Positions 8,092 to 26,407 of a stretch of DNA of 64,000 bases are shown here, piece after piece. The notes below the pieces were generated by a model. The model saw only the letters and a list, made by a program, of their open reading frames with translations. It did no database searches and had not been told where the DNA came from. The translations under genes and the position numbers were made by a program. Position 1 is the first letter of the stretch; the number at the start of each line of letters is the position of its first letter. The stretch is taken from UHGV virus genome UHGV-1440165; one strand, 5' to 3'. The stretch is from a virus.

Positions 8092-8146
8092 GATATAGTC
8101 TCTCAAATGAAAGGCGGCCTTATGATAAGCCGCCCGAGATTATTGA

Positions 8147-9061
8147 TTATTGGAAATCGCCAACATACATGTTCAGCTTGTCATCCCACTCCACGACGAC
8201 GCGGATCGTTCCGGAATCTTCAGGGAAGGTCAGCTTAGAGCACATGGCGCGGTTGACATAAGTCCCGCTCTGGTTGACGTTGTAGTCCTTCCCAGCACAG
8301 ACACCGAAACGTTTGAAGTCACGGGTCACCATCATGTTCAGAGTTGTCCAAGGGAGTGCATCGCGCAGGGCTTTACACAGGATGATCTTTCCATCCGGTC
8401 TGAAGGAGACAAACATCTCATTGGCAACCCGGCGGCGAGCAGGCGGTTCAAGTTCGCGCAGGGAGATGAATTCAGAGGGATCATCCAAGGCACCCAAGGC
8501 ACCCAGGGCGACCATGTCTTCGCGAACTTTACTGACAACTTCAGTTACTGCGGACACGACTTCAACAGCCGGATTCGCCTTAAATGGTTCAACAGTCTTG
8601 GACATCTTGGATACAGACATCCCATCACCCTTGCGCTTCTCCGCATATTGCTCGACGGACTTGTCGCTCACCGGAGGCAGTTTGGTGGCAGGGGTTATAA
8701 CCGGGCTTGCATCTGGTTTCGACTTCGGGGTGCTACGAGCCAGGCGAAGATTTTCTTGGGCTTGCAGAATACGCTCTTGTCGTGTCTGTGGAGCCTTTGG
8801 TGAGATCTTCGTACTGAAGTCAGAAACACCGACCCAGTCACCCTGGTCATTGCGCTTGGCAACCAATGTCAGTTTGTGGATGATGCCCTGCAGCTTGCTT
8901 TCACGCAAATTGTCGGCATACCAGAACCTGGCGCCCATCTCGAACTTCTCGGCGAAGATGACACGAGCGTCTTCATGTACGAGCATCACTCGAGCCGCGT
9001 TGGGAGCGAACGTTTTGTTCTTTTCAATGATCGCCGCAGCGATAGTTTTCGTCAGGAGCAT
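8147..9061 (-). CDS. Hypothetical protein with low-complexity linker
   Basis: About 304 aa; ATG at 9061; central P/S/K-rich linker between two domains. Confidence 0.5.
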   Translation of the reverse strand: MLLTKTIAAAIIEKNKTFAPNAARVMLVHEDARVIFAEKFEMGARFWYADNLRESKLQGIIHKLTLVAKRNDQGDWVGVSDFSTKISPKAPQTRQERILQAQENLRLARSTPKSKPDASPVITPATKLPPVSDKSVEQYAEKRKGDGMSVSKMSKTVEPFKANPAVEVVSAVTEVVSKVREDMVALGALGALDDPSEFISLRELEPPARRRVANEMFVSFRPDGKIILCKALRDALPWTTLNMMVTRDFKRFGVCAGKDYNVNQSGTYVNRAMCSKLTFPEDSGTIRVVVEWDDKLNMYVGDFQ

Positions 9062-9111
9062 CACGATGTATTCCTATCGGTTCAATTGGAGGTTAAATTT
9101 TACCCTGAAAT

Positions 9112-9444
9112 CTATTTTGAAACGCCGACAAAGTCCTGGGCAATTCCCCGACAATACATCAGGTCGGTCTTCGTTTGTGGGCTGTTTTCTGCCGCCGACA
9201 TCATCATTGGCAGGTCCAGCGCATTCTCTATCTGGTCAACGCTGAACAGGTCAAGGCGCTTCAGCTCTCCCTCGAAGTCGGACAGGAGAATAGACGTGTC
9301 TTTGTCGTCCGGATGGAATTGCTGATACGTCTCCATCCAGGCAGCGCATGTATTCAGTTTGGACGGCGGGGCGGCATGTACCCCGCCGATATAGGCAACC
9401 ACGACAGCCAGGATTAACAAGAGGATGATTTTACGAGTCATCAT
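9112..9444 (-). CDS. Small secreted or membrane-anchored protein
   Basis: 110 aa; N-terminal MMTRKIILLLILAVVVAYIGGVHA reads as a signal peptide or signal anchor. Confidence 0.5.
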   Translation of the reverse strand: MMTRKIILLLILAVVVAYIGGVHAAPPSKLNTCAAWMETYQQFHPDDKDTSILLSDFEGELKRLDLFSVDQIENALDLPMMMSAAENSPQTKTDLMYCRGIAQDFVGVSK

Positions 9445-10127
9445 TCGTTCTCCTTCATCATGTTATCACAGTCGACACGAGTCTGTTGCAGCTCACGCGA
9501 CATACGAGGATCGTCGAGGTTCACACTCAGATTCGTGGCCAGATCTTTCAGGCCGTTCTGAACACGATCCTCATAATAGTGGTCGTTCTCAACCAGCCAG
9601 GCTCTGAGGCCAAGAGCGCGGGTACGCCATTGTTTCTTCAGAACACGGTCGGTTGTTTGTTCGGCACTGTACTCAAAGACCTTGATGCACTGGTTGCCAT
9701 CGTCGATAAGGTTCAGGTGACGGCGGCCAATCTGCACACCCTTCTGTAATGCCGGAGAAGGGAGCGAACGGCACTGTCTGACGGTCATGCGTCCTTGGGT
9801 GCCCATACGCCCAGTCATGATCAGATCGCTGGCCTCCATGCCTCCACGGTTAAATTCGTCGTCATTGAGGTAGCCCTTGAGGTTATAGGCTCCCTGTTTG
9901 TATCGGTTGAACTCAATCCCGGCATTGACAACAGCGGTGGAGACGTTGCCTGTGTTCCAGAGTTCAGCAAAGTTCTCTATGGATCCAGACTTATCGATTG
10001 CGACTGCCTGGGAGAACCCAGCGCAGTAGGAAAGATCAGACCACAGTTTGTCACCTGTGGTGTTCAGCTTGGCAGCGGCAGGGAGTGCCAGACCTGCAAG
10101 CACAACCCCAAGGATTAAACGTTTCAT
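9441..10127 (-). CDS. Secreted protein (signal peptide)
   Basis: ATG at 10127 preceded by AAGGAG; MKRLILGVVLAGLALPAAA is a signal peptide; mature part contains Cys residues. Track start 10193 is an upstream extension. Confidence 0.55.
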   Translation of the reverse strand: MKRLILGVVLAGLALPAAAKLNTTGDKLWSDLSYCAGFSQAVAIDKSGSIENFAELWNTGNVSTAVVNAGIEFNRYKQGAYNLKGYLNDDEFNRGGMEASDLIMTGRMGTQGRMTVRQCRSLPSPALQKGVQIGRRHLNLIDDGNQCIKVFEYSAEQTTDRVLKKQWRTRALGLRAWLVENDHYYEDRVQNGLKDLATNLSVNLDDPRMSRELQQTRVDCDNMMKENE

Positions 10128-10211
10128 GGTGATTCTCCTTATTTCATTGGATGAAATGATAGGCGGCTCACCATGCTGAGTAAAGGGTTTCAATAAACTA
10201 TCGTATTCAGA

Positions 10212-10661
10212 TTAGTACCGACTATCACTGACCGTCCGGTACTTCACACCCTTGAACTGCTTGGCAACCTTGACGAACTCCATCGCAGGCATGTCCACTT
10301 TGTAGACCTTGATGCGCTGACGGTCATCCATGTTCAGAGCAGCCACATAGCGGTGGGAGCCGTCGACCACATAGTTATCAGAAGACACCCAAACCCGACC
10401 CATGGGCTTCTTGTTTCTGATGTTCTTCATGATCTTCCAGACCTTCATCTTGTTGATTTCGTTCTGGGTGAGACGGAGCGATTTGATAGGAACCTGGCCA
10501 GCATCGATAGTGATGCCGAGTTCCTCCAGGTAGTCATGGAAGGCATCCTGTTTGTCATCGTCGATTTGTGGCATAGAAGAACGCGAAAGCCCGAGGTTTC
10601 CAACAGGAATCCTCAGGCCGTTGATAATGTTCAACCAGTCTATGAAGGAAGACATGAACAT
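10212..10661 (-). CDS. ParB-like nuclease domain protein (putative)
   Basis: Contains VVDGSHRYVAAL, resembling the ParB/sulfiredoxin-fold DGxHR motif; ATG at 10661 with GAGGTGA RBS (track start is GTG at 10670). Confidence 0.4.
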   Translation of the reverse strand: MFMSSFIDWLNIINGLRIPVGNLGLSRSSMPQIDDDKQDAFHDYLEELGITIDAGQVPIKSLRLTQNEINKMKVWKIMKNIRNKKPMGRVWVSSDNYVVDGSHRYVAALNMDDRQRIKVYKVDMPAMEFVKVAKQFKGVKYRTVSDSRY

Positions 10662-10804
10662 GAGATTCACCTCGGGATATGAATTATCCCTTAGTTAGTC
10701 GTGAAATGTCTTGGCGAGAAACCTCCCGACATATTCACAAAAGGCAATGATCACTAAACCCAATCCGCAACCAATAAGCCAACCCCAAAATTCAATGTCC
10801 ACCA

Positions 10805-11092
10805 TCACACCTCGTCTTCTTCAGGTCCACCGTCAATCAGGATACGAGCGGTGTCGAAAGTTTCCCCGCCCGTGTTCAGCAGCTTGGTCAGATCGTCAAG
10901 ATATCGGACCGTGCCAAGATCAGATGACCGCGTTATAAATTCCAGCATACCATACAGGGCTGATTTGAATCGGCTGTTGTCGATATCGTTCTTGATTTCC
11001 ATCAGGCGCAAGATGTTCTCTGACTGAGTATGGCCAACACACGCCTTGTCTCTGATCATCTCCTTGATAGAACTTCTCTCTGTTGGTGTCAT
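10805..11092 (-). CDS. Hypothetical protein
   Basis: 95 aa ORF, ATG start. Confidence 0.4.
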   Translation of the reverse strand: MTPTERSSIKEMIRDKACVGHTQSENILRLMEIKNDIDNSRFKSALYGMLEFITRSSDLGTVRYLDDLTKLLNTGGETFDTARILIDGGPEEDEV

Positions 11093-11466
11093 AACGAACC
11101 ACCCCCGACAGAGATCAAGAACTCTTCTTCAATGGTCGTGACCGGGCGGCGGTTGCGGGTTTCGATCATGAAGCCCCAGCCGCCGTCGGCGACGTTGCCA
11201 AAGGTCTTGACGCCAAAGGTCTTCTTCCCGTTGGAGCAGGCATAGAAGTCCAGGATGAACGGGCTACCCTGATTGTCGATCCCACGGTTTACGCCGTCCG
11301 CTACACAGCGCTCAATCATCTTCCCGTTCTTATACAGAACGAGGTCTTGGCCATACGCCTTGAAAGCATAAACGCCGTTGGTAGACACTCCGGTGATGAC
11401 AGGAGGAGCGGAAACAGCAGAGAAGGAAGCGCCCAGCAGGGCAACGGCGAGGATTAACTTTTTCAT
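11089..11466 (-). CDS. Secreted protein (signal peptide)
   Basis: ATG at 11466; MKKLILAVALLGASFSAVSA signal peptide; two Cys in mature part. Confidence 0.55.
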   Translation of the reverse strand: MKKLILAVALLGASFSAVSAPPVITGVSTNGVYAFKAYGQDLVLYKNGKMIERCVADGVNRGIDNQGSPFILDFYACSNGKKTFGVKTFGNVADGGWGFMIETRNRRPVTTIEEEFLISVGGGSL

Positions 11467-11490
11467 GATATAGTCTCTTGGTTTCAAATG

Positions 11491-11512
11491 GGCGGGGTAT
11501 GATTACCCCGCC
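11491..11512 (-). other. GC-rich hairpin (GGCGGGGTA-loop-TACCCCGCC) of a recurring intergenic element
   Basis: Perfect 9-bp stem; followed on the minus strand by CATTTGAAACC and the RBS/start of the 11466 gene. Confidence 0.5.
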
Positions 11513-11518
11513 GTGGGT

Positions 11519-12025
11519 TTATAGGGTAACAAGTGATACGGTAAAAACCATCGTCCCGTCAGTTGCCATTTTTCTTGAAACTGGTATGACGCGAGGCTGG
11601 CAGAATATCCATTCTTTCTCCATGGACGCCAAGTCCAGCATATCCATTTCTGATTCATCGCCTTTGTTCACAAATTTTTCTAGAGAACCATAGACATTAA
11701 GCCCCTCCGGGAGTCCGTTTCGATGTTTGTAACATATGCGGGCGACAGCTCTGGTTCCATACGATTTAGAAAATTGTTTGGCCACATGCTTCAGTTCACT
11801 GAAGCTAAGACAAGAATCCCATGTCTGAAACATGTCTCCTCGTTCAAACATCATCTCCAAACGCGCAACGTCCTCTTTAGGCAACCCGCGATAAAGTGTG
11901 GTCATCTGCGGTTCGCGTAATTCTCGCACCAGACCACGGATGGCAGGGGAAACAGTGCCAGGGCGCATGATGTGGGACTTATCATGGACGAGGTAAAATA
12001 AATCTTGAATTTGTTGATCGGTCAT
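11519..12025 (-). CDS. Hypothetical protein; possible ADP-ribosyltransferase-like
   Basis: 168 aa; ATG with GAAGGA RBS; candidate R / S-x-S / E-x-E triad (LYRG, DSCLSFS, EKE) is suggestive only. Confidence 0.35.
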   Translation of the reverse strand: MTDQQIQDLFYLVHDKSHIMRPGTVSPAIRGLVRELREPQMTTLYRGLPKEDVARLEMMFERGDMFQTWDSCLSFSELKHVAKQFSKSYGTRAVARICYKHRNGLPEGLNVYGSLEKFVNKGDESEMDMLDLASMEKEWIFCQPRVIPVSRKMATDGTMVFTVSLVTL

Positions 12026-12084
12026 GATGTATTTCCTTCATTTCAAATAGGCGGGGTAATCATACCCCACCCTAAGTTATAGAA

Positions 12085-12324
12085 TTAACTGATGTGCTTC
12101 AGAAGAGCGAAGAGGATCGCGGCCTTGGCTTTCACCTTTCCGACGACGCCTGTTTCGACATCGACTTCTTCGGCAACCCAATCTTTTCCCTTCTTGCTGA
12201 TGATAACATCGCGGCGCTGGGCATATACTTCTTTGGTCGCATACACACGGCGGAACCCTTTAGCGCGGAGCAAGCCCCAATTGCGATCAATCTCTACTGA
12301 AGTTTCGACCATTTTGTTCTTCAT
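12085..12324 (-). CDS. Hypothetical small basic protein
   Basis: 79 aa, ATG start, downstream of an early-type promoter. Confidence 0.4.
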   Translation of the reverse strand: MKNKMVETSVEIDRNWGLLRAKGFRRVYATKEVYAQRRDVIISKKGKDWVAEEVDVETGVVGKVKAKAAILFALLKHIS

Positions 12325-12375
12325 GATATAATCTTACCTTTCAACCTGGTGAACCCATCGTTCGCCAGTTATTGA

Positions 12376-12405
12376 ATAATAGGACATTCTTTAGAGGAAG
12401 TAAAC
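12376..12405 (-). promoter_or_regulatory. Sigma70-type early promoter (-35 GTTTAC, 18-nt spacer, -10 TATTAT)
   Basis: Minus-strand GTTTAC-N18-TATTAT immediately after a terminator hairpin; resembles the T4 early-promoter -35 consensus. Confidence 0.5.
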
Positions 12406-12415
12406 CCCTAAAAGT

Positions 12416-12440
12416 AAAAATCCCCAACAAACGTTGGGGA
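12416..12440 (-). terminator. Intrinsic terminator (TCCCCAAC-loop-GTTGGGGA + T-run)
   Basis: 8-bp GC stem followed on the minus strand by TTTTTA; lies downstream of the 12458..12682 gene. Confidence 0.6.
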
Positions 12441-12457
12441 TTTAATAAAAGTTATGC

Positions 12458-12682
12458 CTATTTAATTTCTCGGCTTGAATTTTCCAGTTCTAATTTTCTT
12501 ATAGCGGAAATTCTACCTTCATCAGTTGCGGGAAACTCCCAAACAGCACGACGTCCGTTGTGAGTATCACAACTTGCCAGCCAGAAGAAATTAGAGGGAT
12601 CTTTAAACAAGACCAATTTAGGGTTAGCAATATTGTTCAGGCAAAATGGGGCGAGGTCAACAACGCGTGATACAGCAGACAT
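12458..12682 (-). CDS. Hypothetical small protein
   Basis: 74 aa ORF, ATG start. Confidence 0.4.
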   Translation of the reverse strand: MSAVSRVVDLAPFCLNNIANPKLVLFKDPSNFFWLASCDTHNGRRAVWEFPATDEGRISAIRKLELENSSREIK

Positions 12683-12731
12683 AATATATACCTTCTTTCA
12701 ACGGACGGGAACGCCCCGCCCTATGAATTCA

Positions 12732-12761
12732 ATAATACGTATTTGCCTTATAGAAGTAAAC
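12732..12761 (-). promoter_or_regulatory. Sigma70-type early promoter (second copy of the GTTTAC-N18-TATTAT cassette)
   Basis: Near-identical copy of the 12376..12405 promoter. Confidence 0.5.
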
Positions 12762-12771
12762 CCCTAAAAGT

Positions 12772-12796
12772 AAAAATCCCCAACGTTTGTTGGGGA
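12772..12796 (-). terminator. Intrinsic terminator (second copy, loop inverted)
   Basis: Same TCCCCAAC/GTTGGGGA stem as at 12416..12440 with the loop sequence reverse-complemented; T-run on the minus strand; downstream of the ACP-like gene. Confidence 0.6.
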
Positions 12797-12802
12797 CTTC
12801 TG

Positions 12803-13126
12803 TTATTTGCGCAGGGCAACCACGAATTCAGCGAGTTCACCCATGGTCGGGTCATCGCCTTTACTGCCCAGCCAGCCGTCGTCTATTTCGACCTGAAACT
12901 CTTCTTCTAGTTCCATTACGATTTCGATAGCATCCAGTTCATCGCCGCCGAGGTCTTTCTTGGTGCGGAGGCCAGCCAGTTTGTCCAGGGCGTCTTCGTT
13001 TTGAGATGCCACGTCGTCCAGCAGTTTGCGCTTGTCATCGTCGCGCCACAGATCCATATTCAGATTCTCTGTAGCGTACTGAGCCAGGTGTCGCATCACC
13101 TCAACATATGTCGGTTTACTGCTCAT
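12803..13126 (-). CDS. Acyl carrier protein-like protein lacking the phosphopantetheine-attachment serine
   Basis: 107 aa; DLGGDELDAIEIVMELEEEFQVEIDD closely matches the ACP helix-II region [20 protein letters not shown], but the DSL serine codon is GAA (Glu); ATG with GGAGA RBS. Confidence 0.6.
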   Translation of the reverse strand: MSSKPTYVEVMRHLAQYATENLNMDLWRDDDKRKLLDDVASQNEDALDKLAGLRTKKDLGGDELDAIEIVMELEEEFQVEIDDGWLGSKGDDPTMGELAEFVVALRK

Positions 13127-13144
13127 GTCACTTCTCCCAAAGAA

Positions 13145-13162
13145 GGGCGGGTTGCCCCGCCC
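13145..13162 (-). other. GC-rich hairpin (GGGCGGG-loop-CCCGCCC) between vWA and ACP-like genes
   Basis: 7-bp perfect stem immediately after the vWA stop; terminator-like but weak T-run. Confidence 0.4.
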
Positions 13163-13168
13163 GTTGGA

Positions 13169-15370
13169 TTAGATTTTGATCTCTTTCTCTGCCAGTTCGG
13201 CAGTGACCTTGTACTTCACGCCATCCACTTCAACTTCCATGGTTGACTCTTCCAGGTCGAGGTCGGTGAACCAGCCATGGCCAGCAACGATACCATACAC
13301 CACTTTAGACAGCGTCTTGTTCAGGGCGCGGACTTCAGTGATGGCCGCCTTGGCAGCAGCGTCGATCCAGTTTTCGATCAGCTGTTTCTGTACGGCTTCA
13401 GGCACAGCAGTAATAGCCGGGGACTTCACGAATGCGTCGTATTCTTTCAGTGCATTGGCGATGAACATATCACCCGCATTGAGAGCCTTTTTATCAGCAA
13501 TCTTCTTCTGTACCGCAGCGATGGACGGCAGAGAAGACGCCCCGGCGATCTTAACGTTCAGCTCACGGCTCATGTAGACGTCCGTGGAGTCCTTCAGCTC
13601 GGTCTTCGGTGAGAAGCCATAATCGCGGATACCAACACTAGACAGGTATTCTGCGGCCGCAGCGCCGTACTGAATAGCCAGACCTTTGGCATTACCCTTA
13701 CCAACCAGGGCGTCGCGATAGAACTTCAGTACCTTCTGCTTGCCTTTCAGGGCTTCCAGGCGAACGTTGTCGGCAAAGAACTGTGCAGCACTGATGTTCT
13801 TGACCATCGCACGGTTGACCAGCGGTACGCTTTCCAGGTTCAGAATGAACACTTCCGGACCAACGAACACGTGGACGCCCATTTCGATCAACTTCTGCAC
13901 AACTTCGATATCAGCCTTGAACGGCAGGGTCTTCACATTGATGATGCCGTCTTTGACGATGGTGTAGTTGCGCCACTGGAATGTGTCCAATTCTTCGGGT
14001 AGACCGAACTTCTTCTGAGCGAATTCGGGCACCGCCACAGTTCCATGCTGGATTGTACGCACACTGATGTTCGGGCGCTCAGAGTTATAGACCAGGTCGC
14101 TGATTGAGATCACGCCCAGATCGTTAGCAGGTTCAAACGACGGTGTCCACTCTTCGTGCTCAGCCAGCTTGAGAGCGAGGGCTTTACGCTCTTCTTTGGA
14201 CTTGGCGTTCGCGATTTCTTCCGCCAGCTTGTCTTCGGTATCATCGGCTTTCTGCACAGTACCGCGACCAATGCTCTTGTAGGAGAACATCGGGTGCTTG
14301 GTGGCAACAGACACGCCAGCTTCGGCCAGGTACGTCAGCACATCAACGACAGTGGTCGCATCTTCAGCCGGAACCATATTGTAGTCGATACCGTCCACGC
14401 CGCGCAGCTGATCATCAACGATGGCCTGGGTCAGATCAACTTTGATGTTGGAGTAGTCCTGCTTGGTGAAGCAGTTGCTGTACTGTTTGATGAAGCGGAC
14501 GTCGCCCGTTTTCTTCAGCGCAGCCCACACCAGGTCGGCGTCCATGATGTGTACGCCGTAGAACGCCAGCACGTATGCTGCCTGGATGTCCGTCAGCGCA
14601 TCAAGCTGGTCGATCATGTTAGGGTTGACGACCCACAGCTTCGTGACGCTCTCAGGGATGCTCACGTGGCCGATAGGATGGTCTTCATCCGGCTGTACCG
14701 CCAGCACGGTTGCTACGCCGTTTTCAACGTAGATGGCGTGAGTGTACACCACAGGAACGTCAACACGAACCTTCGGCACCGAGGACTTCAACACGTTTTC
14801 CAGCTCAGTCTGATATTCAGTCTGTCCTTCGGCGAACACGTGAGTCGCGCCGGAACGCTCGGACATCTGGGCCAGGAGTTCGCGGTTACAGTACCAGCCG
14901 TATTCGATAAAGGTGATGTTATCGAAAACAAATGGCAAGGTTTCGGCGACGGCCAGGATTTCATTGGAGCGCCAGCAGTTGTCATAACCATCGGTCATGA
15001 ACGCCAGGTTGTTGACGTAGCCGGGTTTCTTCAGGCTACGCGCAGTATCTACCGCGAGACCCAGGGGTTCGACGAAGCCAGTGCAACCGGATGGTTGCAG
15101 GAAGCGGTCGATCAGTTTGTTCAGCTCGCTCAGGTCAGACGCAGCACTGACCTGGCGGCCAGCGAACACAGTACCAAAGTCGCCACGGGATGAGAAGTAC
15201 AGGAGGCTCACTGTGTCTTCCGGTTTCACCAGGGAAGGCAGGTTCTCCTTCAGGTGCTTACGGACTTCAGGGAGCGCCCGGTACATGGAACCGGAAATGT
15301 CCACAACGATTACATGGTTGGACGGGGCAGCAGTCGCAACCGCATTCTTAAACTCCAGGGATTCAATCAT
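13169..15370 (-). CDS. von Willebrand factor A (vWA) domain protein
   Basis: MIDAS-type motif VVDISGSM near the N-terminus and later TDGYDN; about 733 aa from ATG at 15370 (MIESLEF...). Track start 15433 overlaps a small upstream ORF. Confidence 0.65.
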   Translation of the reverse strand: MIESLEFKNAVATAAPSNHVIVVDISGSMYRALPEVRKHLKENLPSLVKPEDTVSLLYFSSRGDFGTVFAGRQVSAASDLSELNKLIDRFLQPSGCTGFVEPLGLAVDTARSLKKPGYVNNLAFMTDGYDNCWRSNEILAVAETLPFVFDNITFIEYGWYCNRELLAQMSERSGATHVFAEGQTEYQTELENVLKSSVPKVRVDVPVVYTHAIYVENGVATVLAVQPDEDHPIGHVSIPESVTKLWVVNPNMIDQLDALTDIQAAYVLAFYGVHIMDADLVWAALKKTGDVRFIKQYSNCFTKQDYSNIKVDLTQAIVDDQLRGVDGIDYNMVPAEDATTVVDVLTYLAEAGVSVATKHPMFSYKSIGRGTVQKADDTEDKLAEEIANAKSKEERKALALKLAEHEEWTPSFEPANDLGVISISDLVYNSERPNISVRTIQHGTVAVPEFAQKKFGLPEELDTFQWRNYTIVKDGIINVKTLPFKADIEVVQKLIEMGVHVFVGPEVFILNLESVPLVNRAMVKNISAAQFFADNVRLEALKGKQKVLKFYRDALVGKGNAKGLAIQYGAAAAEYLSSVGIRDYGFSPKTELKDSTDVYMSRELNVKIAGASSLPSIAAVQKKIADKKALNAGDMFIANALKEYDAFVKSPAITAVPEAVQKQLIENWIDAAAKAAITEVRALNKTLSKVVYGIVAGHGWFTDLDLEESTMEVEVDGVKYKVTAELAEKEIKI

Positions 15371-15543: not shown

Positions 15544-15567
15544 CAAAACAGGGGAGTTTCCTCCCCT
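15544..15567 (-). terminator. Putative intrinsic terminator after the NAMPT-like gene
   Basis: AGGGGAG-TTTC-CTCCCCT hairpin followed on the minus strand by GTTTTG. Confidence 0.5.
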
Positions 15568-19026: not shown

Positions 19027-19059
19027 CAAGGCGGGGTTACTCAGGCCGGAGCCGACAGA

Positions 19060-19431: not shown

Positions 19432-19477
19432 TTTACTATCCTCAATGATGAATGGGTTACAGTTTCAAATCAGGGTT

Positions 19478-21496
19478 TTAGAACACAACTTTCACAGTAC
19501 GGTTGAACGAGCCGCTCACCTTCACGAACACGTGGTTGCGTTGGGTGGTAGAGAAGCCCAGTCCGGACAGCTGCTCAGTGCTTGGCTGTACCTTAATCTT
19601 ACTACCTAACATTTCAAAAACCTTACGGTGTTTATCCAGTTCCGGCTTCAGATATTCGTTGTAGAAGCCACGGGTGCCGACCGGGTTGGCACAACCTTCC
19701 AGGATGAAGAACACGTGCTTGTTGCCCGTCTGCTCGCCGTCCCAATGGTTTGGTGAGTTCAGAACCAGTTGCACCTTCTGGAAGACTGAGGTCTTGATAC
19801 CCCAGATTTCCTGGGAGCGAGCGTCGTCTTTCAGGGTCGAACTGATGCCTGTCAATTGTCCAGCGCGGACGTGGAGCACAACAGCCAGGGTGCGGTCTTT
19901 ATGCTTCAGACCGGGATGTGAGAAGCGCTTGGTCTGCCCTTTGTATTCGACTTCAATTTCAAAGCCCATATCGCAGGTTTCACGCTGGCTGAAGTTGGTG
20001 ACATAGAACTCATAGTCGCCATCGCGCAGCTTGCGCTCATCGCTGAAGAAGATGTTCTCGACCGGGCGACGATTTGGATCAATACCGTCCATGCCGTTCA
20101 TGTCGATGTCCAGGGTTGCGCCAGTTGCTGAACGACGGTTGTGGTAATACACATGGTTGTGCAGCGGATCGTTCATGCTCAGGTCCAGGTCATCGTTGTT
20201 GTGCCAAGCCAGGGACACCCGGAGGAAGCTGTCAACGTTGCCACCAGCGGTCTTCACGCGCTCTTTGATGGAGTCAGCCACTTCACCGTTGTATGACCAG
20301 CTGAAGCCGTTGTTCCACTTGAACAGGTTAGGAGCGCCAGCGGTAGCCGGAGCAATCAGAGACATCAGGTTGCCAGTGTGGGAGTTCTCAACCAGCACTT
20401 CCAGGGAATGCGCCTTTGGCAGCACGTTCGTCAGGAAGTCATCGATAGTGATCTCTTCAACCTTATCCAGGGACTTGGTTGGAGTCTTCACTTCAGACGC
20501 CAGCTGAGCAAACGGGTCCATCTTCTTCTGAGCCGCCAGGTCGGCGAACAGAACGTTGTTGATGGTCAGATCGTCATACACGGCATAACGGCGACCCAGT
20601 GAATCGGTCAGACCCAGCGCTTCAACTTCTTTCTGCGCGTTTTCGATCATCGACTTGGTCACCAGCGCAGTTGGGCGCTTGTAGTTCGTCGGAGCTACTT
20701 TGGCTTCGAAAGACTTGACGGCGGTTTCCAGGTCGCGGCCTTCGTTGAGGTCTACCAACAGAGAGCCAATCACGGTATTACGAATGCCGTGAGGGGTATG
20801 ACCGTTCGCACGATAGCCAGTGCGCCAAGCCCACAGAGCGCGTTTCTCTTCTGCAGTCTGTTCGTACAGGGTCTTGTTCACCACGAACGCCTGCACTGCC
20901 GCCTTGTGCTCTTCACCGCGATACAGAGAATTCTGATCAATCAGTTCCAGGACGATTTCGGCCGATTCCAGAGACAGCTCACGCAGACCGCGCTCAAACA
21001 CTTCGATCGCCTGGCGGATTTCACCCTTCTTAGAAGCGATGCCATCAGCGCGCAGAACATAGCTGCCCAGCAGATCGGCATGGAAGTGGTTATAAGTGCG
21101 CACGTTGCCGTCTTTCATTTCGTGATTCGACTCAACGCCGACTTTCTTGGTGTCGTTGAAGTATACGTCGACGATTGCGTGCTGTTTAACATACGCCGAC
21201 AGCGCCGCCGCAACAACATCGTATTCGTTACCCAGCTGAATGCCGTCCCAGATAGTAATCATTTCGTAATCAGGGGTGATGGTGACCACGCCGCCGATGT
21301 TACGGATGAATTGTTTGCAGCAGGTGCAGTCGTGCTCGGTGCGCTCACGGTAAAGCGGGTTAGTGCCCGCAGGGAAAGAAGACAGATACAGATCCCACAG
21401 AGCATCTTTATCGGTGTTGGTCATGAACAGACCAGTTGCTGACATGGCCAGCACGTTGTTGTTTACGGCTACTGCGAAGGGCTTGAATTGTGACAT
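19478..21496 (-). CDS. Large hypothetical protein (672 aa)
   Basis: ATG start; long ORF with protein-like composition; contains HDCTCC and MKDGNVR segments but no confidently recognisable domain. Confidence 0.55.
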   Translation of the reverse strand: MSQFKPFAVAVNNNVLAMSATGLFMTNTDKDALWDLYLSSFPAGTNPLYRERTEHDCTCCKQFIRNIGGVVTITPDYEMITIWDGIQLGNEYDVVAAALSAYVKQHAIVDVYFNDTKKVGVESNHEMKDGNVRTYNHFHADLLGSYVLRADGIASKKGEIRQAIEVFERGLRELSLESAEIVLELIDQNSLYRGEEHKAAVQAFVVNKTLYEQTAEEKRALWAWRTGYRANGHTPHGIRNTVIGSLLVDLNEGRDLETAVKSFEAKVAPTNYKRPTALVTKSMIENAQKEVEALGLTDSLGRRYAVYDDLTINNVLFADLAAQKKMDPFAQLASEVKTPTKSLDKVEEITIDDFLTNVLPKAHSLEVLVENSHTGNLMSLIAPATAGAPNLFKWNNGFSWSYNGEVADSIKERVKTAGGNVDSFLRVSLAWHNNDDLDLSMNDPLHNHVYYHNRRSATGATLDIDMNGMDGIDPNRRPVENIFFSDERKLRDGDYEFYVTNFSQRETCDMGFEIEVEYKGQTKRFSHPGLKHKDRTLAVVLHVRAGQLTGISSTLKDDARSQEIWGIKTSVFQKVQLVLNSPNHWDGEQTGNKHVFFILEGCANPVGTRGFYNEYLKPELDKHRKVFEMLGSKIKVQPSTEQLSGLGFSTTQRNHVFVKVSGSFNRTVKVVF

Positions 21497-21611
21497 GATG
21501 TAGTCTTCCTGTTTCAGTTCAAATGTGCGCCCCGTTTGCCAGGGCGCTTCGTTTAAGTGAGGTCAATAATACGTTGAAAAGAGTTATTGAAGAATGAAGT
21601 AAAGGGAATCT

Positions 21612-22865
21612 TTATTCAGGTTTCTTCAAACGATCAAGGAGATTGACAGAGCTGCGACCGAGCACAACTTCATCACAGCGCTTCTTGTAAGCACCACTTC
21701 CGTCATAACCGACCTTACCCCGAGGCTTATCTCCCCGTTGAACGGCTTCTACGCAGCGGGTGTACTTGCTCAGTTCACAGAACATGTTCTCCAGCTGCAT
21801 GACGTTCATACACTGATCTTCCGGGGCTTCAGCCGACCAGAACTGCTCCCGGACATAACCATAGTCCCCGTAAATCGAATCCTGGTGGTCACGCAGCCAG
21901 AAGATACATTCTTCATGCGTCATGCCGTCCTTGTTCAGGAACAACAGGTCGATCCCAGCGCGGCAACCCGGTCCAGCGATAGTGAAATGGTTCTCACTGA
22001 ACGGATACTCAGGAATGTACGTGAAGTCCACCCAGATCTGATAGGCCAGGAATGGACCCAAGCCTTCGATTTCGTCGTACATGGCCTGGTAGACTTCATC
22101 CGGAGATTCGCATTCCAGCAGCCGCTCGAAGTAATCAGGGTGCTTGTTGACGAATGCCCTCAGAGAACGGATGACGCGCATCGGCATGTACGGTTCCCAA
22201 CCCTCAATGGTGTAGAAGTCCGGCTCTGCTTCAGCAATTGCCTTCGCTTCTTTATAATCCATATTCTGGGTTGAACCGTCTTTGCAGATCAGATTCACCA
22301 TCATCCCACCGAAGCGCTGCTCCTTGTGGTTGACAACCAGCTCAGGGAAAGCCAGGCATTGCTTCAGGCCGCCCGTGTTGAAAGCATTGGTGAAGACTTT
22401 GCCGCCGTTGGCCTCGAACTTCTGTAAACGTTCGCGGGTCGCGTCAAGGTTGATCTTGGCGAAGTCGGAGATCGTCATCGCGCCGCCGATAGCCTGGATC
22501 GGATCCCAGAGGTTAAACATGCGGAACAACACGCAGTTGAACATCTTATCCGGCATAGACAGCGCATCGTTGTTAACGATGTTGTTGATTAGGTTGAGAG
22601 ACTGCCTGTCGTGCTCTCTCCGGACGTTGCAGAACTTGACCTGCCGTAGTATGGCATTATCCGTCCAAGGAGCAGGAAGACGCTGGACGTCCTTCTTAAC
22701 GTGGATCTTGTATCGCTCGCTCATCCATTCGTAAGAAAGACGACGATGAAACGGACTGAGCACGGGCTTGGCGGACTTGATTTTATCTTCGCGGACACCA
22801 CAATAAGGGATGTCACGGGCTTTATCTTTCATGGTATCCTCACAGAATACGAAAACAGAGGCCAT
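21612..22865 (-). CDS. Hypothetical protein (417 aa)
   Basis: ATG at 22865 (alternative ATG at 22832 with GAGGA RBS); no recognisable motif. Confidence 0.5.
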   Translation of the reverse strand: MASVFVFCEDTMKDKARDIPYCGVREDKIKSAKPVLSPFHRRLSYEWMSERYKIHVKKDVQRLPAPWTDNAILRQVKFCNVRREHDRQSLNLINNIVNNDALSMPDKMFNCVLFRMFNLWDPIQAIGGAMTISDFAKINLDATRERLQKFEANGGKVFTNAFNTGGLKQCLAFPELVVNHKEQRFGGMMVNLICKDGSTQNMDYKEAKAIAEAEPDFYTIEGWEPYMPMRVIRSLRAFVNKHPDYFERLLECESPDEVYQAMYDEIEGLGPFLAYQIWVDFTYIPEYPFSENHFTIAGPGCRAGIDLLFLNKDGMTHEECIFWLRDHQDSIYGDYGYVREQFWSAEAPEDQCMNVMQLENMFCELSKYTRCVEAVQRGDKPRGKVGYDGSGAYKKRCDEVVLGRSSVNLLDRLKKPE

Positions 22866-22901
22866 TATAAGCCTCTGCTGTTTAGTGAATAACTGGTTGT
22901 C

Positions 22902-23774: not shown

Positions 23775-23790
23775 AATATAGCGACTCCAG

Positions 23791-24255
23791 TTATTCGCTT
23801 TTGGCCTTCGTAGGCCGGATGATGTATTTTGGAACCAGCTTCCATTCAGGAACCTGATCATGTTTGACCACTTTGATGCGAGACATATCGGCGGCCTCAG
23901 TGATCTGCTCAGGGTTCAGAACCTTCAACATGTTCCACTGCTCCAGCAGCTTGATGATGCGGTTCATTCGCAGGATGTCCTCACGGTTGAAGCCGTTGTA
24001 GTGGCCATCCAGCATGAACAGATGCTTGAAGTGAACGATATAATACTTGCCATACTTATGAAGAATATGACAAGTCTGGTACAGAGTATTCGGCTCTTGG
24101 CGCGTGTTTACCCCAATTCGGCTCAGTGTTTCCTTGATCCCCAGGAAGATCCCTGGCCGATCTTGGTTCAATTGAACTTCAACCATACAATCAACGATGC
24201 TGGCCTCATCGTTGACGGCTGAAATGTTCAATATGTCTAGCGTATTGCGCGCCAT
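23791..24255 (-). CDS. regA: RegA-like translational repressor
   Basis: 154 aa; KETLSRIGV...LYQTCHILHKYGKYYIVHFK and EWKLVPKY match T4 RegA; sits next to the clamp-loader genes as in T4. Confidence 0.7.
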   Translation of the reverse strand: MARNTLDILNISAVNDEASIVDCMVEVQLNQDRPGIFLGIKETLSRIGVNTRQEPNTLYQTCHILHKYGKYYIVHFKHLFMLDGHYNGFNREDILRMNRIIKLLEQWNMLKVLNPEQITEAADMSRIKVVKHDQVPEWKLVPKYIIRPTKAKSE

Positions 24256-24284
24256 GACTTATTCCCCTTTTACAATAGTTTGAA

Positions 24285-24707: not shown

Positions 24708-24711
24708 AGTA

Positions 24712-25701
24712 TCACTTCCACTTGATGTTGAGCATGATGTTGGTCAGGAAGTACACGGCATGCAGCCATACGTCCCCAACCTGACGGTGCTCAATTTGAG
24801 ACTGACCGCAGACACAGACAAGGTCAGGGATAGACTCAGTCTGTACAGACATCGGCTTCTCTTTGTCCTGTGGTACACAGAACTGGAAGAAGCGGGAATA
24901 GAAGTCTTCGGTGATGTAGTTCTGATTGTCAGTCACCCACTGCTTCATGCCAGCCCAGTCATTGGCTTTCAGCATGCCGACCAGAGTGCCGAGGTCAGCC
25001 GCTTTCAACACAGCCAGGGCGCGTTCGTCAATCTTACCGAACGTGGTGACGTTGTCCTGCAGCGTACCCATGATGCGGCGGTTGTCGGGGAAATGGCGCT
25101 TAACGATAGCAGCCAGAACCTGTGGAACGAATTCAACGTTTTCGGCTCTGAGGATTTCAACGCAGCGCAGACAGAATTTACCCTGAACTTCCAGCGCTTC
25201 CTGCTCGTTCCAGATGAAGTCGATCTCACGGCAACGCGAGCGCAGAGGTTCGTTGACACGCTGCTTGGCGTTCGTGGTCAGGATAAAGGAGCAGTTCTTT
25301 GAGACCTTCTCTACGATACCCTTCAGGGATTCCTGCGCCGACATAGACAGGCGCTCAACTTCGTCGAGGATAACGACTTTGCGGCCGCCGAAGACGCTCA
25401 CGCCCGTAGAATACTGAATGACGCGATCACGGATAACATCGATGCTGTTGTCCAGGGATGCGTTGATAAACAGAGGTTGCTTACAACCGATCTCATTACA
25501 CACGGCCAGAGCAGTAGTGGTCTTGCCCGTACCCGGCTGAGGGGAGTAGAACAGCATGGACGGGATGTTGCCGCTGCCGCTGGTAATGTACCCATGGATT
25601 TTAGCGCGGACGTCCTGAGGGATGATGATCTCATCGAGGTTGTCAGGTCTGTACTTGTTCTCCCACGCATATTGGTCGGACACGATAGTGATATTGGACA
25701 T
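24712..25701 (-). CDS. Clamp loader large subunit (gp44-like, RFC-type AAA+ ATPase)
   Basis: Walker A PQPGTGKTT, Walker B VVILDEVE, SRC motif (RSRC); ATG overlaps the upstream stop (TAATG). Confidence 0.85.
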   Translation of the reverse strand: MSNITIVSDQYAWENKYRPDNLDEIIIPQDVRAKIHGYITSGSGNIPSMLFYSPQPGTGKTTTALAVCNEIGCKQPLFINASLDNSIDVIRDRVIQYSTGVSVFGGRKVVILDEVERLSMSAQESLKGIVEKVSKNCSFILTTNAKQRVNEPLRSRCREIDFIWNEQEALEVQGKFCLRCVEILRAENVEFVPQVLAAIVKRHFPDNRRIMGTLQDNVTTFGKIDERALAVLKAADLGTLVGMLKANDWAGMKQWVTDNQNYITEDFYSRFFQFCVPQDKEKPMSVQTESIPDLVCVCGQSQIEHRQVGDVWLHAVYFLTNIMLNIKWK

Positions 25702-26357
25702 TATGAATTCCCATGATATAGTTTACAGAATAGAACCCAAGCACTGTCATTATATGGGTTCCAACCTTCTTTGAATTTGTTTATCATACTCATTGCAGTG
25801 TTCTCTTTTATTGAGAACAAACGAGCAATTTTACGACAACCATCTCCGGTTTTCAACCAATGTAAGTAAACATCGCCCGATTTCAACCACATTGGTCTAG
25901 TGTTATGCAACAACGCAGCCCCTGTGTCCCAAGGGTTTATACCGAACACCGGATGAGAAGAACCTTTCCTACCGTTCATCGGATGTTCTTTCCCTTTCTT
26001 TCCTTTTAGCCAACCAGGCTTTCCCCTTCTGTGATGGTTTGGTCCTGCTGCTCTTCCGTTAGCCACAGAACACCCTTCCGGTTGAAACATCAAGTTTAAA
26101 CAGAGAGGATTTTGTGAATGTTCTGAAATGAGTTTCTGTTCTTTCCAATATGCATCTTCTGGAGAGTCGAACAATTCTACAAATATCACATCAAAGAAAT
26201 CAGAACCTTTCTTAGATATGATTTCCTTGACCGTTTGTGAAGAAGTGAAATACGAAGTGAACAATTGTAAAGGATGCGCACCCAATTTCGTTCTAGAACC
26301 AAAATAGAAAGAACCATCCTTTCCTAACAAATGATATACAAACGGTTGGTTCCTCAT
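25701..26357 (-). CDS. Putative GIY-YIG-type homing endonuclease (freestanding)
   Basis: VYHLLGKDGSFYFGS (GIY...YIG-like), downstream conserved E and N, basic C-terminal region; ATG at 26357 with AGAGG RBS; inserted between gp45 and gp44. Confidence 0.45.
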   Translation of the reverse strand: MRNQPFVYHLLGKDGSFYFGSRTKLGAHPLQLFTSYFTSSQTVKEIISKKGSDFFDVIFVELFDSPEDAYWKEQKLISEHSQNPLCLNLMFQPEGCSVANGRAAGPNHHRRGKPGWLKGKKGKEHPMNGRKGSSHPVFGINPWDTGAALLHNTRPMWLKSGDVYLHWLKTGDGCRKIARLFSIKENTAMSMINKFKEGWNPYNDSAWVLFCKLYHGNS

Positions 26358-26388
26358 TTCAGCCTCTTGTAGAAGAATCATTTCAAAT

Positions 26389-26407
26389 GGGCGGGAAAGC
26401 CCCGCCC
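26389..26407 (-). other. GC-rich hairpin (GGGCGGG-AAAG-CCCGCCC) of the recurring element
   Basis: Perfect 7-bp stem followed on the minus strand by ATTTGAAATG; a TATAAT hexamer lies just upstream. Confidence 0.45.

Follow-up and report, generated by a model that had tools for sequence, protein, structure and literature searches.

The GC hairpins followed by ATTTGA that recur upstream of early genes in this phage are, at slightly better than even confidence, composite intergenic regulatory cassettes of three modules, similar to the promoter-early stem-loop (PeSL) elements described as mobile regulatory cassettes in the T4-type phages RB49/phi1, PST, and nt-1 (PMC2839356; Comeau et al. 2014, PMC4122927). 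The window (the whole 64,000-nt stretch analyzed) is from an Agtrevirus-like Ackermannviridae phage. We document the anatomy of the sites, their enrichment, their conservation with stem covariation, and their link to gene presence/absence differences between relatives.

Stable Hairpins and a Shared Tail

A sequence-only reading of this DNA had named four minus-strand sites, and at 4/4 we find a stable GC hairpin followed by the reported tail. A further site, S4, was overlooked there and belongs to the same set.

S1, minus strand: hairpin 8135-8113, GGGCGGCTTATCATAAGGCCGCC, -17.8 kcal/mol, z -3.4; tail TTTCATTTGAGA
S2, minus strand: hairpin 11512-11491, GGCGGGGTAATCATACCCCGCC, -18.3 kcal/mol, z -4.3; tail CATTTGAAA
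S3, minus strand: hairpin 12072-12050, GGGTGGGGTATGATTACCCCGCC, -18.8 kcal/mol, z -4.3; tail TATTTGAAA
S4, minus strand: site 21547-21517, hairpin 21547-21527, GCGCCCTGGCAAACGGGGCGC, -17.6 kcal/mol, z -4.4, 19 nt 3′ of the -10-like hexamer; tail ACATTTGAAC
S5, minus strand: hairpin 26408-26388, TGGGCGGGGCTTTCCCGCCCA, -18.3 kcal/mol, z -3.7, beginning 4 nt past the -10-like hexamer; tail (A)TTTGAAATG

The folding energies of S1–S5 thus run from -17.6 to -18.8 kcal/mol (z -3.4 to -4.4), and 0/200 shuffles reach the same stability. Two extra hairpins reported as tail-less (13145..13162 and 51466..51483) are also both present. The label holds for 51483-51466, where ACAACC comes next, but not for 13162-13145, a borderline member because TTCTTTGGGA comes next there and TTCATTTTGAGA in the Kuttervirus ortholog.

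Borderline site, minus strand, 13134..13162 (hairpin 13162-13145): hairpin GGGCGGGGCAACCCGCCC, then TTCTTTGGGAG, a canonical U tract merging into the Shine–Dalgarno sequence (SD)

The 8-mer ATTTGARA is by itself only mildly enriched (11 observed vs. 6.0 +/- 2.3 expected), and it also occurs 5′ of starts that have no hairpin, for example at window position 19470 and before pSal gene 36019-36507. Hairpins of -15 kcal/mol or better, found at only 0.7% of random positions, directly precede ATTTGA in 6 of 35 cases, far above chance (P ~1e-7). In the closest relative (161-kb genome), the intergenic hairpin-plus-ATTTGA cases are these five sites and one late-promoter hairpin only.

Promoter-Like Motifs Around the Hairpins

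The sequence TTCAAT[N14]TATAAT has been published as a regulatory motif of Viunalikevirus (cited in PMC7283392). S1, S3, S4, and S5 each match it with 1–2 mismatches and exact spacing: S4 reads TTCAAT-N14-TATTAT, S5 aTCAAT-N14-TATAAT, S1 aTCAAT-N14-TATcAT, and S3 TTCtAT-N14-TATgAT. The published form differs in being a consensus alone, lacking hairpin and leader, and S2 has no match.

S1 upstream box, 8140..8147, minus strand: ATCAATAA (TTCAATAA-type), about -33 to -26, as box-N12-TATCAT
S2 degenerate box-like element, 11518..11525, minus strand: CCTATAAA, overlapping the upstream ORF stop codon
S3 box, 12077..12084, minus strand: TTCTATAA, one substitution from the TTCAATAA of the orthologous Serratia phage site
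S4 promoter-like motif, 21566..21591, minus strand: TTCAATAA-N12-TATTAT
S5 promoter-like motif, 26412..26437, minus strand: ATCAATCT-N12-TATAAT, with TG at -15/-14, directly after the gp45 stop codon

In the pSal genome, box-N11-13-(-10) matches number 20, against 3.5 +/- 1.8 in Markov simulations; 15/20, including S1, S3, S4, and S5, have the orientation of a gene whose start is <=150 nt downstream. The window holds 6 such matches (0.95 expected), and TTCAATAA is a top intergenic 8-mer (18 observed vs. 1.4 expected). The seventh nucleotide after the -10 is G in 10/20 matches; S1, S3, and S5 are among these in every clade. The S4 motif is kept in 5/5 clades examined. S1 geometry recurs in Kuttervirus (TTCTATAA-N12-TATTAT) and Taipeivirus (GTCTATAA-N12-TATAAT), where the S5 motifs read ATCAATAA-N13-TATTAT and TTCAATAT-N13-TAATAT, respectively.

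Placement of the -10 relative to the hairpin varies: It lies in the loop at S1 (TATCAT, 8127-8122) and S3 (TATGAT, 12064-12059) and precedes the hairpin by 4 nt at S5 and by 19 nt at S4. In pSal, further promoters of this class at 45833, 48590, 53878, and 100890 have GC hairpins wrapped around the -10, the commonest PeSL layout (Arbiol et al. 2010, PMC2839356). The S2 hairpin and that of pSal/MK-13 are exact reverse complements, the S2 loop being flipped relative to relatives; this flipped form has no match in IMG/VR, and the TATGAT form occurs on 10 contigs there. The S2 box-like element does not match the box pattern of the promoter-motif scans. Since that box is only degenerate and the flip destroys TATGAT in the window, a promoter at S2 appears dispensable.

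The literature searched contained no transcript 5′- or 3′-end data for this phage family, so promoter, terminator, and start-site assignments are sequence inference throughout, as are promoter activity, termination efficiency, and any role in mRNA stability.

Tail and Leader

The tail is better explained as a short, weak U tract joined to the leader TTGA(A/G)A-SD-TAYAYC-ATG.

S1 tail and leader, 8089..8112, minus strand: TTTCATTTGAGAGACTATATCATG, comprising U tract, TTTGAGA, SD GAGAG, TATATC, and ATG at 8091
S2 tail and leader, 11464..11490, minus strand: CATTTGAAACCAAGAGACTATATCATG, ATG at 11466 of a lipoprotein-like ORF
S3 tail and leader, 12023..12049, minus strand: TATTTGAAATGAAGGAAATACATCATG, ATG at 12025
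S4 tail and leader, 21494..21526, minus strand: ACATTTGAACTGAAACAGGAAGACTACATCATG, ATG at 21496
S5 tail and leader, 26355..26388, minus strand: ATTTGAAATGATTCTTCTACAAGAGGCTGAAATG, annotated ATG at 26357

Other genes carry the TTGA(A/G)A-SD leader without a hairpin. Across 222 starts, TGAAA is ~5-fold enriched at -20 to -16, TAYAYY stands immediately 5′ of the ATG in 26/222 genes, and the two tend to occur together (odds ratio 7.9, P 1e-5). Spacing to the start codon, previously described as fixed, is variable: The end of the 8-mer lies 9, 15, 15, 20, and 23 nt from the annotated ATG. That G-A-A strictly follows TTT in all the genera is only loosely explained; neither termination nor generic S1/SD function needs it.

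Two related cassettes place a hairpin and gTTGAAA 3′ of clear TTTACT-N17-TATTAT promoters, with a canonical terminator already upstream.

Cassette A, 12680..12799, minus strand: terminator hairpin 12796-12777; TTTACT (12760-12755)-N17-TATTAT (12737-12732)
Cassette A, 3′ part, minus strand: 5′ UTR hairpin 12721-12703; GTTGAAAG; SD; TATATT; ATG at 12682
Cassette B, 12322..12443, minus strand: terminator hairpin 12443-12418; TTTACT (12404-12399)-N17-TATTAT (12381-12376)
Cassette B, 3′ part, minus strand: 5′ UTR hairpin 12368-12346; GTTGAAAG; SD; TATATC; ATG at 12324

Conservation and Gene Gain and Loss

The hairpin-plus-ATTTGA element is conserved across the whole phage family, with orthologous sites in Agtre-, Limestone-, Kutter-, and Taipeivirus and one further clade. 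From genus to genus, its TTTGA(A/G) core does not change, whereas the stems undergo compensatory substitutions (GGGCGGG/CCCGCCC, GGCGGGG/CCCCGCC, GCAGGGGC/GCCCCTGC, GGGCGG/CCGCCC). Compensatory changes in the S1 stem occur in pSal (GGGCGAC/GTCGCCC) and fGh-Ecl02, and the S5 stem takes four distinct sequences among five clades; the S4 tail and leader show almost no change across genera.

Paired cassettes bracket genes that vary in presence/absence between relatives. S2 and S3 are 57-nt repeats around a 168-aa ORF that is missing in Taipeivirus and has denV in its place in Kutter- and Limestonevirus, where the S3 hairpin and leader sit before denV. A and B are 47-nt repeats around a 74-aa ORF missing in MK-13, fGh-Ecl02, and Ds5CZ, where one chimeric cassette is left. 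The S5 leader precedes gp44 in MK-13, fGh-Ecl02, Kutter-, and Taipeivirus; in the window it precedes an inserted homing-endonuclease-like ORF, which follows S5.

Comparison with Known Systems

Like PeSLs, the cassettes are intergenic and combine a sigma-70-like promoter with a stem-loop of G and C runs; this stem-loop often overlaps the -10 or separates it from the upstream element, and SD and start codon come at the 3′ end. In both systems, repeated copies cluster among small accessory genes, and pairs of copies surround ORFs present or absent between close relatives; RB49 crossovers were mapped to the loop, and loop flips are seen in the present cassettes. PeSLs were described from T4-like phages, whereas the present cassettes are in Ackermannviridae, with the upstream element TTCAATAA at a fixed N12 from the -10 instead of TTGACA-N17, shorter inter-copy sequence conservation (47-57 nt), and, at the S sites, a post-hairpin tail TTTGA(A/G) that is not in the PeSL description. 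Promoter and terminator activity is putative for the present cassettes.

The hairpins themselves are already listed as predicted terminators for a related phage, Shigella phage SboM-AG3, whose Table S2 gives Torf131, Torf138, Torf160, and Torf165 as putative rho-independent terminators (Anany et al. 2011, PMC3121705). The listed hairpins are the orthologs of those described here and share their tails (...catttt, ...cattt, and ...tattt): S1 is Torf131, S3 is near-identical to Torf138, S4 is Torf160, S5 is Torf165, and the borderline 13162-13145 is Torf144. The same table places predicted promoter Porf138 directly 5′ of “terminator” Torf139. The AG3 annotation is in silico only and does not mention the shared GA(A/G)A, the promoter-motif overlap, or cross-genus conservation. 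An overlap, within a short piece of intergenic DNA, between the signals that end one tandem transcription unit and start the next also characterizes promoter-coupled terminators (Fletcher et al. 2026 preprint, 10.64898/2026.08.19.745784). There, the stem-loop lies on the -35, the -10 comes after a T tract, and the start is ~10 bp past the termination site; at the present sites, the -10 is inside the loop or ahead of the hairpin.

5′-terminal stem-loops stabilize mRNA, as in the E. coli ompA 5′ UTR. At S5, cassette A, and Taipeivirus site 6064, the hairpin would begin at or within ~3 nt of the predicted start, which is the geometry needed against 5′-end-dependent RNase E attack. S1–S3 do not fit, with their predicted start inside the 3′ arm.

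Alternative Explanations

We consider it rather unlikely that the sites are plain rho-independent terminators whose short U tract enters the next gene's purine-rich ribosome-binding site and is shared by cassette paralogy. The AG3 predictions, the stability of the GC-rich hairpins, and their position on the coding strand 6-45 nt past stop codons (except S4, at ~75 nt) fit such terminators, as do the clear duplication of S2/S3 and the borderline site, where the U tract merges into the SD as TTTGGGA or TTTGAGA. S1 passes the standard U-tract criterion, but at S2–S5 just 3-4 of the first 8 nt are U and the terminator scan does not call these sites, whereas canonical terminators elsewhere in this genome carry long T runs. 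Promoter-like motifs precede S4, S5, and the second hairpins of A/B, the last also lying downstream of a separate canonical terminator, and the tail occurs without hairpins as well. The earlier view that the sites are not simple terminators had been argued from fixed start-codon spacing; that argument falls, but the view itself stands because only S1 passes the U-tract criterion, TTTGA(A/G) is invariant even where linker and stem change, and a promoter-like motif of the TTCAAT[N14]TATAAT type contains or closely precedes each site.

Two other roles had been proposed. Endonucleolytic processing, in which single-stranded Y|AUUUGA immediately past the hairpin would be the target of RNase E or a phage nuclease, the cut leaving the upstream mRNA a protective 3′ hairpin and the downstream cistron as a separate mRNA, is improbable. 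Its sole basis is resemblance to the classical RNase E substrate 5′-ACAGU|AUUUG (PMC2948425), a match of low specificity since AU-rich stretches are generic RNase E targets. The intercistronic position fits, and the AU-rich strand after the hairpin is predicted to be unpaired at S2–S5 (at S1, a predicted outer helix pairs the tail GAGA); however, the A is not conserved, S5 reading CUUUGA in Kuttervirus and UUUUGA in Taipeivirus, and the TTGAAA leader also occurs at predicted primary transcript 5′ ends and without hairpins. We regard as highly improbable a protein-binding translational operator, for example for a phage RegA homolog controlling a small early regulon that includes the clamp-loader operon. 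A RegA homolog is nearby (23791-24255; Pfam PF01818, E 3e-33), and structure alone leaves TTTGAA invariance unexplained. S5 sits before gene 44 in relatives, and gene 44 is among the classical targets of RegA in T4. The RegA sites of T4 overlap the start codon, whereas the tail lies a variable 9-23 nt upstream, and its distance to the SD varies too; it is not known to resemble the T4 RegA consensus, which also counts against an operator. Hairpin sequences differ between sites and change by compensation, so a protein would recognize only 5-6 nt, and we find no support for a sequence-specific operator. The attenuator role also suggested is compatible with the promoter-hairpin-tail anatomy.

A Proposed Composite Cassette

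In the composite cassette that we favor, module 1 would be a promoter-like motif of the Viunalikevirus form TTCAAT[N14]TATAAT, of sigma-70 type with a -35 region that is not TTGACA-like and a box-N12 geometry unusual for sigma-70. Module 2 would be the GC-rich stem-loop, variably placed relative to the promoter; at S1 and S3 (and S2 in relatives), its 5′ arm lies within the spacer and the -10 hexamer in the loop, and a 3′-arm G stands 7 nt after the -10, at the expected initiation point. Module 3 would be the tail, with ATTT as a short U tract and GA(A/G)A opening the purine-rich leader TTGA(A/G)A, SD, TAYAYC-ATG.

For transcripts reading in from the upstream gene, hairpin and weak U tract could act as a leaky intrinsic terminator or attenuator and 3′-end protector, and the overlapping promoter would reinitiate transcription. 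Because the U tracts of S2–S5 fail the standard terminator criterion, termination may be negligible; if S4 and S5 do terminate, their own promoters would be attenuated too. At S1–S3, the new transcript would begin inside the 3′ arm, its 5′ end a few nucleotides ahead of AUUUGA, whereas at S5, S4, and cassettes A/B the hairpin would be at or near the transcript 5′ end and could stabilize the mRNA. Tail and leader would then drive translation of the next gene.

Being present in repeated copies, the cassettes may also serve as recombination points for gene gain and loss. The hairpin and ATTTGA are best read as one part of ordinary promoter/terminator/ribosome-site cassettes that separate early genes and help to shuffle them.

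Genomic Setting and Phages Compared

Over positions 8000–14000, the window is 94% identical to Salmonella phage pSal-SNUABM-02 (pSal; Agtrevirus, Ackermannviridae). The same interval is matched by 278 phage records, whose hosts are nearly all enterobacterial (Salmonella, Klebsiella, Escherichia, Dickeya), and every matching record inspected belongs to Ackermannviridae. The minus strand carries almost all window genes; those surrounding the sites analyzed here are small accessory genes and the replication genes gp45, gp44, gp62, and regA. For comparison, the homologous 33-kb region was taken from six phages: MK-13 (Agtrevirus), PST-D24 (Kuttervirus), MDA2066 and IME250 (Taipeivirus), Ds5CZ (Limestonevirus), and fGh-Ecl02, which is catalogued as Kuttervirus yet is ~89% identical to the window.

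A Small Local Family of Hairpin–Tail Sites

The sequence-only reading had described, at four places, a GC-rich hairpin followed by a (C/T)ATTTGA(A/G)A tail at a fixed distance from the next start codon. Read on the minus strand, all four (S1, S2, S3, and S5) are exactly as described, and a systematic hairpin scan adds a fifth, S4, absent from that reading.

Hairpin-plus-tail sites in the window
S1, 8135–8113, minus strand: hairpin GGGCGGCttatcataagGCCGCC, tail and leader TTTCATTTGAGAgactatatcATG
S2, 11512–11491, minus strand: hairpin GGCGGGGTAatcaTACCCCGCC, tail and leader CATTTGAAAccaagagactatatcATG
S3, 12072–12050, minus strand: hairpin GGGTGGGGTAtgatTACCCCGCC, tail and leader TATTTGAAAtgaaggaaatacatcATG
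S4, 21547–21527, minus strand: hairpin GCGCCCtggcaaacgGGGCGC, then ACATTTGAACtgaaacaggaagactacatcATG
S5, 26408–26388, minus strand: hairpin TGGGCGGGgctttCCCGCCCA, tail and leader TTTGAAAtgattcttctacaagaggctgaaATG

Fold energies at these sites range from −17.6 to −18.8 kcal/mol (z −3.4 to −4.4), with no shuffle equally stable. The 8-mer by itself is barely enriched (11 versus 6.0 ± 2.3). Hairpins of ≤−15 kcal/mol occur at 0.7% of positions and lie directly 5′ of ATTTGA in 6 of 35 cases (P ~1e-7). The sixth case, at 62546–62504, is a different object, in which the late motif CTAAATAcCcc pairs with an inverted repeat of itself. In the complete pSal genome (161 kb), the intergenic hairpin-plus-ATTTGA cases are these same sites only, which rules out a genome-wide regulatory signal; the sites are a small local family. 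The hairpin–tail observation is therefore real, but the fixed spacing is not: the 8-mer lies 9, 15, 15, 20, and 23 nt from the annotated ATG.

Against Rfam 15 covariance models, no part of the window gave a match at the gathering threshold, nor did 7900–13300 at E ≤ 1. A small ORF or start–stop at ATTTGAAATG was rejected as unconserved: one relative has ATG TAG there, and the reading is in frame at S5 but not at S3. Fold prediction pairs the tail with bases 5′ of the hairpin in an outer helix at S1, in a further repeat cassette (A, described below), and at a borderline hairpin at 13162–13145, and not at S2–S5.

Other hairpins were seen along the way. Hairpin AGGGGAGgaaaCTCCCCT at 15550–15567, followed by gTTTTGAGGtcgaggaATG, adjoins NAMPT/PRPP-synthetase-like genes (15575–18090) that the window has in common with Taipeivirus MDA2066 and MK-13; pSal, fGh-Ecl02, and PST-D24 are without them. 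The late motif followed by its own inverted repeat (GGGGTATTT) is found at at least four late genes (window 62538–62548 with 62502–62516, and 32524–32554; pSal 59596–59622, minus strand, and 145803–145833, plus strand). Only 0–4 nt separate the end of this repeat from the ATG of the late gene that follows, allowing an SD-like GGGG to pair with the CCCC adjoining the late promoter.

Conservation across Relatives

The S sites were found again at orthologous positions in the relatives compared, to which we added 20 IMG/VR loci around gp44; a query with the protein of the S3 gene gave only 2. Stem covariation was read directly from orthologues, the MAFFT alignment of S5 orthologues being out of structural register (RNAalifold). 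At S5, the gp45–gp44 junction, five clades carry four stems (GGGCGGG/CCCGCCC, GGCGGGG/CCCCGCC, GCAGGGGC/GCCCCTGC, and GGGCGG/CCGCCC), and loops and linkers vary too (C, CA, TAT, none). Invariant in all five are TTTGAA and a −10-like hexamer 4–5 nt 5′ of the hairpin. The S1 stem occurs as GGCGGC/GCCGCC and as GGCGAC/GTCGCC. Because stems differ with pairing kept and TTTGAA stays constant, structure rather than stem sequence is under selection, and so, separately, is the short core TTTGA(A/G).

A Promoter-Like Motif Interwoven with the Hairpins

An unbiased k-mer comparison of upstream intergenic regions with the whole pSal genome returned CTAAATA (the late motif), TATAAT, TATTAT, TTTACT, and TTCAATAA as the top intergenic k-mers. 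TTCAATAA was observed 18 times against 1.4 expected in these upstream regions, and a constant 12 nt separates it from a −10-like hexamer. The pattern TC[AT]AT[AC]N-N11-13-TAnn[AT]T has 20 matches in pSal versus 3.5 ± 1.8 in simulated genomes—15 of them ≤150 nt 5′ of a start and in gene orientation—and 6 versus 0.95 in the window. It corresponds to the published Viunalikevirus motif TTCAAT[N14]TATAAT (PMC7283392).

Promoter-like motifs at the sites
S1, minus strand: ATCAATAA-N12-TATCAT
S3, minus strand: TTCTATAA-N12-TATGAT; the Serratia phage orthologue has TTCAATAA
S4, minus strand: TTCAATAA-N12-TATTAT
S5, minus strand: ATCAATCT-N12-TATAAT, with TG in front

At exact N14, the published motif is matched with one mismatch at S4 and S5, with two at S1 and S3, and not at S2; a box-N12/13-TAnnnT arrangement is present at S1, S3, S4, and S5 and degenerate at S2. 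The −10-like hexamer lies inside the hairpin loop at S1 and S3, and the hairpin begins 4 nt past it at S5 and 19 nt past it at S4. At S1 and S3, the C-rich 3′ arm contains a single G, exactly 7 nt past the hexamer, where initiation would be expected; the seventh nucleotide is G in 10 of the 20 matches, and at S1, S3, and S5 in every clade. Predicted pSal promoters of the same class at 45833, 48590, 53878, and 100890 likewise have GC hairpins wrapped around the −10.

TTGAAA/TTGAGA was rejected as a −35 for the next gene, with only 9–23 nt to the ATG and a distance to TAYAYC that varies from 3 to 14 nt. CTATAA, found 4–5 nt before the hairpin at S2, S3, and Kuttervirus S1, was considered as a −10 and reread as TTCTATAA, a variant of TTCAATAA, because it stands exactly N12 from the loop hexamer and the Serratia orthologue has TTCAATAA.

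The Tail and a Shared Translation Leader

Across 222 annotated pSal starts, TGAAA is ~5-fold enriched at −20 to −16, and TAYAYY stands immediately 5′ of the ATG in 26 genes (1.6 expected per bin); the two co-occur (odds ratio 7.9, P 1e-5). A leader consisting of TTGA(A/G)A, an SD, and TAYAYC-ATG follows many predicted early promoters. It is also found without a hairpin, as in ...cccctgaTTTGAGAgactatatcATG before pSal 36019–36507 and at window 19470. Given these occurrences, we read the tail as a fusion in which ATTT supplies the hairpin's short U tract and GA(A/G)A begins the shared leader. This reading does not fully explain the invariance of G-A-A, and ideas of processing and factor binding therefore survive at low probability.

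TAYAYY, present in the window at 8092–8097, 11467–11472, 12026–12031, and 21497–21502 among others, might provide optimal spacing or be recognized by a translational regulator, for instance the encoded RegA. Elsewhere, a hairpin (CAGAGGCttataATGGCCTCTG) at 22856–22877, kept in all Ackermannviridae clades examined, is predicted to sequester the SD and start codon of gene 21612–22865.

Terminators or 5′ UTR Elements

In Table S2 of the genome paper on Shigella phage SboM-AG3 (PMC3121705), these very hairpins appear as putative rho-independent terminators.

Putative terminators of phage SboM-AG3 (PMC3121705, Table S2)
Torf131: gggcgacttatcataaggtcgcccttttcattt
Torf138: ggcgaggtatgattgcctcgcccattt
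Torf160: gcgccctggcaaacggggcgcacattt
Torf165: gggcgggggcgttccccgcctattt

As expected of a terminator, each site has a stable GC-rich stem-loop (−17.6 to −18.8 kcal/mol) 3′ of a stop codon on the coding strand. We nevertheless consider simple intrinsic termination unlikely. With a U tract defined as ≥5 T in 8 nt beginning 0–2 nt past the stem, a standard scan calls S1 alone; S2–S5 have 3–4 T in the first 8 nt, and long T runs follow other intergenic hairpins in the window. The hairpin and gTTGAAA pair also occurs twice more, at 12721–12695 and 12368–12338, in both cases 3′ of a clear predicted TTTACT-N17-TATTAT promoter that is itself preceded by a canonical terminator, a layout that puts these two hairpins in predicted 5′ UTRs. 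A Fletcher-type promoter-coupled terminator, with its −10 past the T tract, was rejected, there being no −10 between tail and ATG. Our literature search found no Term-seq, RNA-seq, transcript-end mapping, or mapped promoters for Ackermannviridae.

Gene Gain and Loss at Repeated Cassettes

A 57-nt direct repeat, its copies 559 nt apart at S2 and S3, flanks a 168-aa Alt-like ORF (11519–12025). The ORF is similar (E 1e-14) to the C-terminal portion of the Alt-like PHROG family "RNA polymerase ADP-ribosylase." In Taipeivirus, which is without it, a single cassette has the upstream surroundings of S3 on one side and the S2 gene on the other; in Kuttervirus and Limestonevirus, the same hairpin with its leader is followed by denV. 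Another repeat pair, cassettes A and B (47 nt, 89% identity), encloses a 74-aa ORF (12458–12682) present in the window and pSal only, and MK-13, fGh-Ecl02, and Ds5CZ have a single chimeric cassette. Each is complete (A, 12680–12799; B, 12322–12443), with terminator, TTTACT-N17-TATTAT promoter, 5′ UTR hairpin, and leader.

In the window, S5 precedes a homing-endonuclease-like ORF, which has taken over the gp44 leader. This ORF (25701–26357; free-standing, PHROG 314) lies between the genes for the sliding clamp gp45 and the clamp loader gp44, and its stop overlaps the gp44 ATG; most relatives are without it, and one IMG/VR locus carries a deletion remnant of it.

Loops are inverted in places. 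The window S2 hairpin (11491–11512) reads, base for base, as the reverse complement of its pSal and MK-13 orthologues; in IMG/VR, the flipped form has 0 matches and the TATGAT form 10. The terminator loops of A (12777–12796) and B (12418–12443), aaac and gttt, are mutually inverted. Such flips would fit recombination inside hairpins, as mapped for the promoter-early stem-loop cassettes (PeSLs) of phage RB49.

PeSLs, known from T4-type phages, have stem-loops, often poly-G then poly-C, that lie mostly between −35 and −10 or over the −10, and an SD and start codon close the element on its 3′ side. Promoter as well as terminator activity has been shown (Arbiol et al., PMC2839356), and mini-circle formation is a further trait of the class. 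The present sites share a sigma-70-like promoter, at sequence level only, at S1, S3, S4, and S5 (degenerate at S2); a stable G-run/C-run stem-loop adjoining or overlapping the −10; and, at the 3′ end, the SD and start codon of the gene that follows. Repeat copies (S2/S3, A/B) likewise flank ORFs inserted, deleted, or replaced between close relatives. Unlike in PeSLs, the upstream element is TTCAATAA rather than TTGACA. By sequence, the sites appear to belong to a PeSL-like class of composite cassettes that join promoter, stem-loop, and leader and are based on the known TTCAAT[N14]TATAAT motif.

Candidate Mechanisms

On balance, we think that the sites probably combine several functions. The hairpin with its weak U tract would act in leaky termination or attenuation and protect the 3′ ends of upstream transcripts, transcription would re-initiate at the overlapping promoter, the shared leader would drive translation of the downstream gene, and the cassette repeats would double as recombination points. 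A distinctly unlikely elaboration is a bifunctional switch, in which the same ~45 bp would, as RNA, terminate or attenuate early transcription coming from upstream and, as DNA, offer the −10 in an extrudable cruciform loop, coupling re-initiation to supercoiling or replication. TTTGAA would then be a recognition or cleavage signal for a phage or host factor, defining a five-gene regulon of the clamp-loader operon, a conserved 672-aa protein, and three accessory genes.

The sequence-only reading had suggested a processing site, attenuator, or operator. RNase E-type processing at the tail is very unlikely. Y-AUUUGA is predicted to be unpaired at S2–S5 and matches the core of the RNase E substrate ACAGU↓AUUUG, in which U stands two nt past the cut, a low-specificity match; the predicted S1 fold pairs the tail GAGA with upstream UCUC, and the A of the AUUUG resemblance is not kept at S5 of Kuttervirus and Taipeivirus. 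In the T4 paradigm, a RegA site overlaps or abuts the initiation codon; here, the tail ends 9–23 nt 5′ of the annotated ATG at S1–S5. RegA or another operator is most improbable.

Implications for ViI-Like Phages

The CBA120 paper describes early and middle promoters of ViI-like phages as not identifiable, with few recognizable, and MotA and AsiA as absent (PMC3184105). Early and middle gene control in these phages is acknowledged as unknown, and the present analysis supplies a concrete map of intergenic signals, in which GC stem-loops and a shared translation leader are physically intertwined with the published TTCAAT[N14]TATAAT motif. For annotation, hairpins called terminators in these genomes may overlap promoters or sit within 5′ UTRs. 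Were the bifunctional switch true, it might supply the "middle-mode" control missing from ViI-like phages, which are without MotA and AsiA. Accessory genes that vary between relatives are bracketed by paired cassettes, which would extend the PeSL idea of modular gene shuffling beyond T4-like phages.
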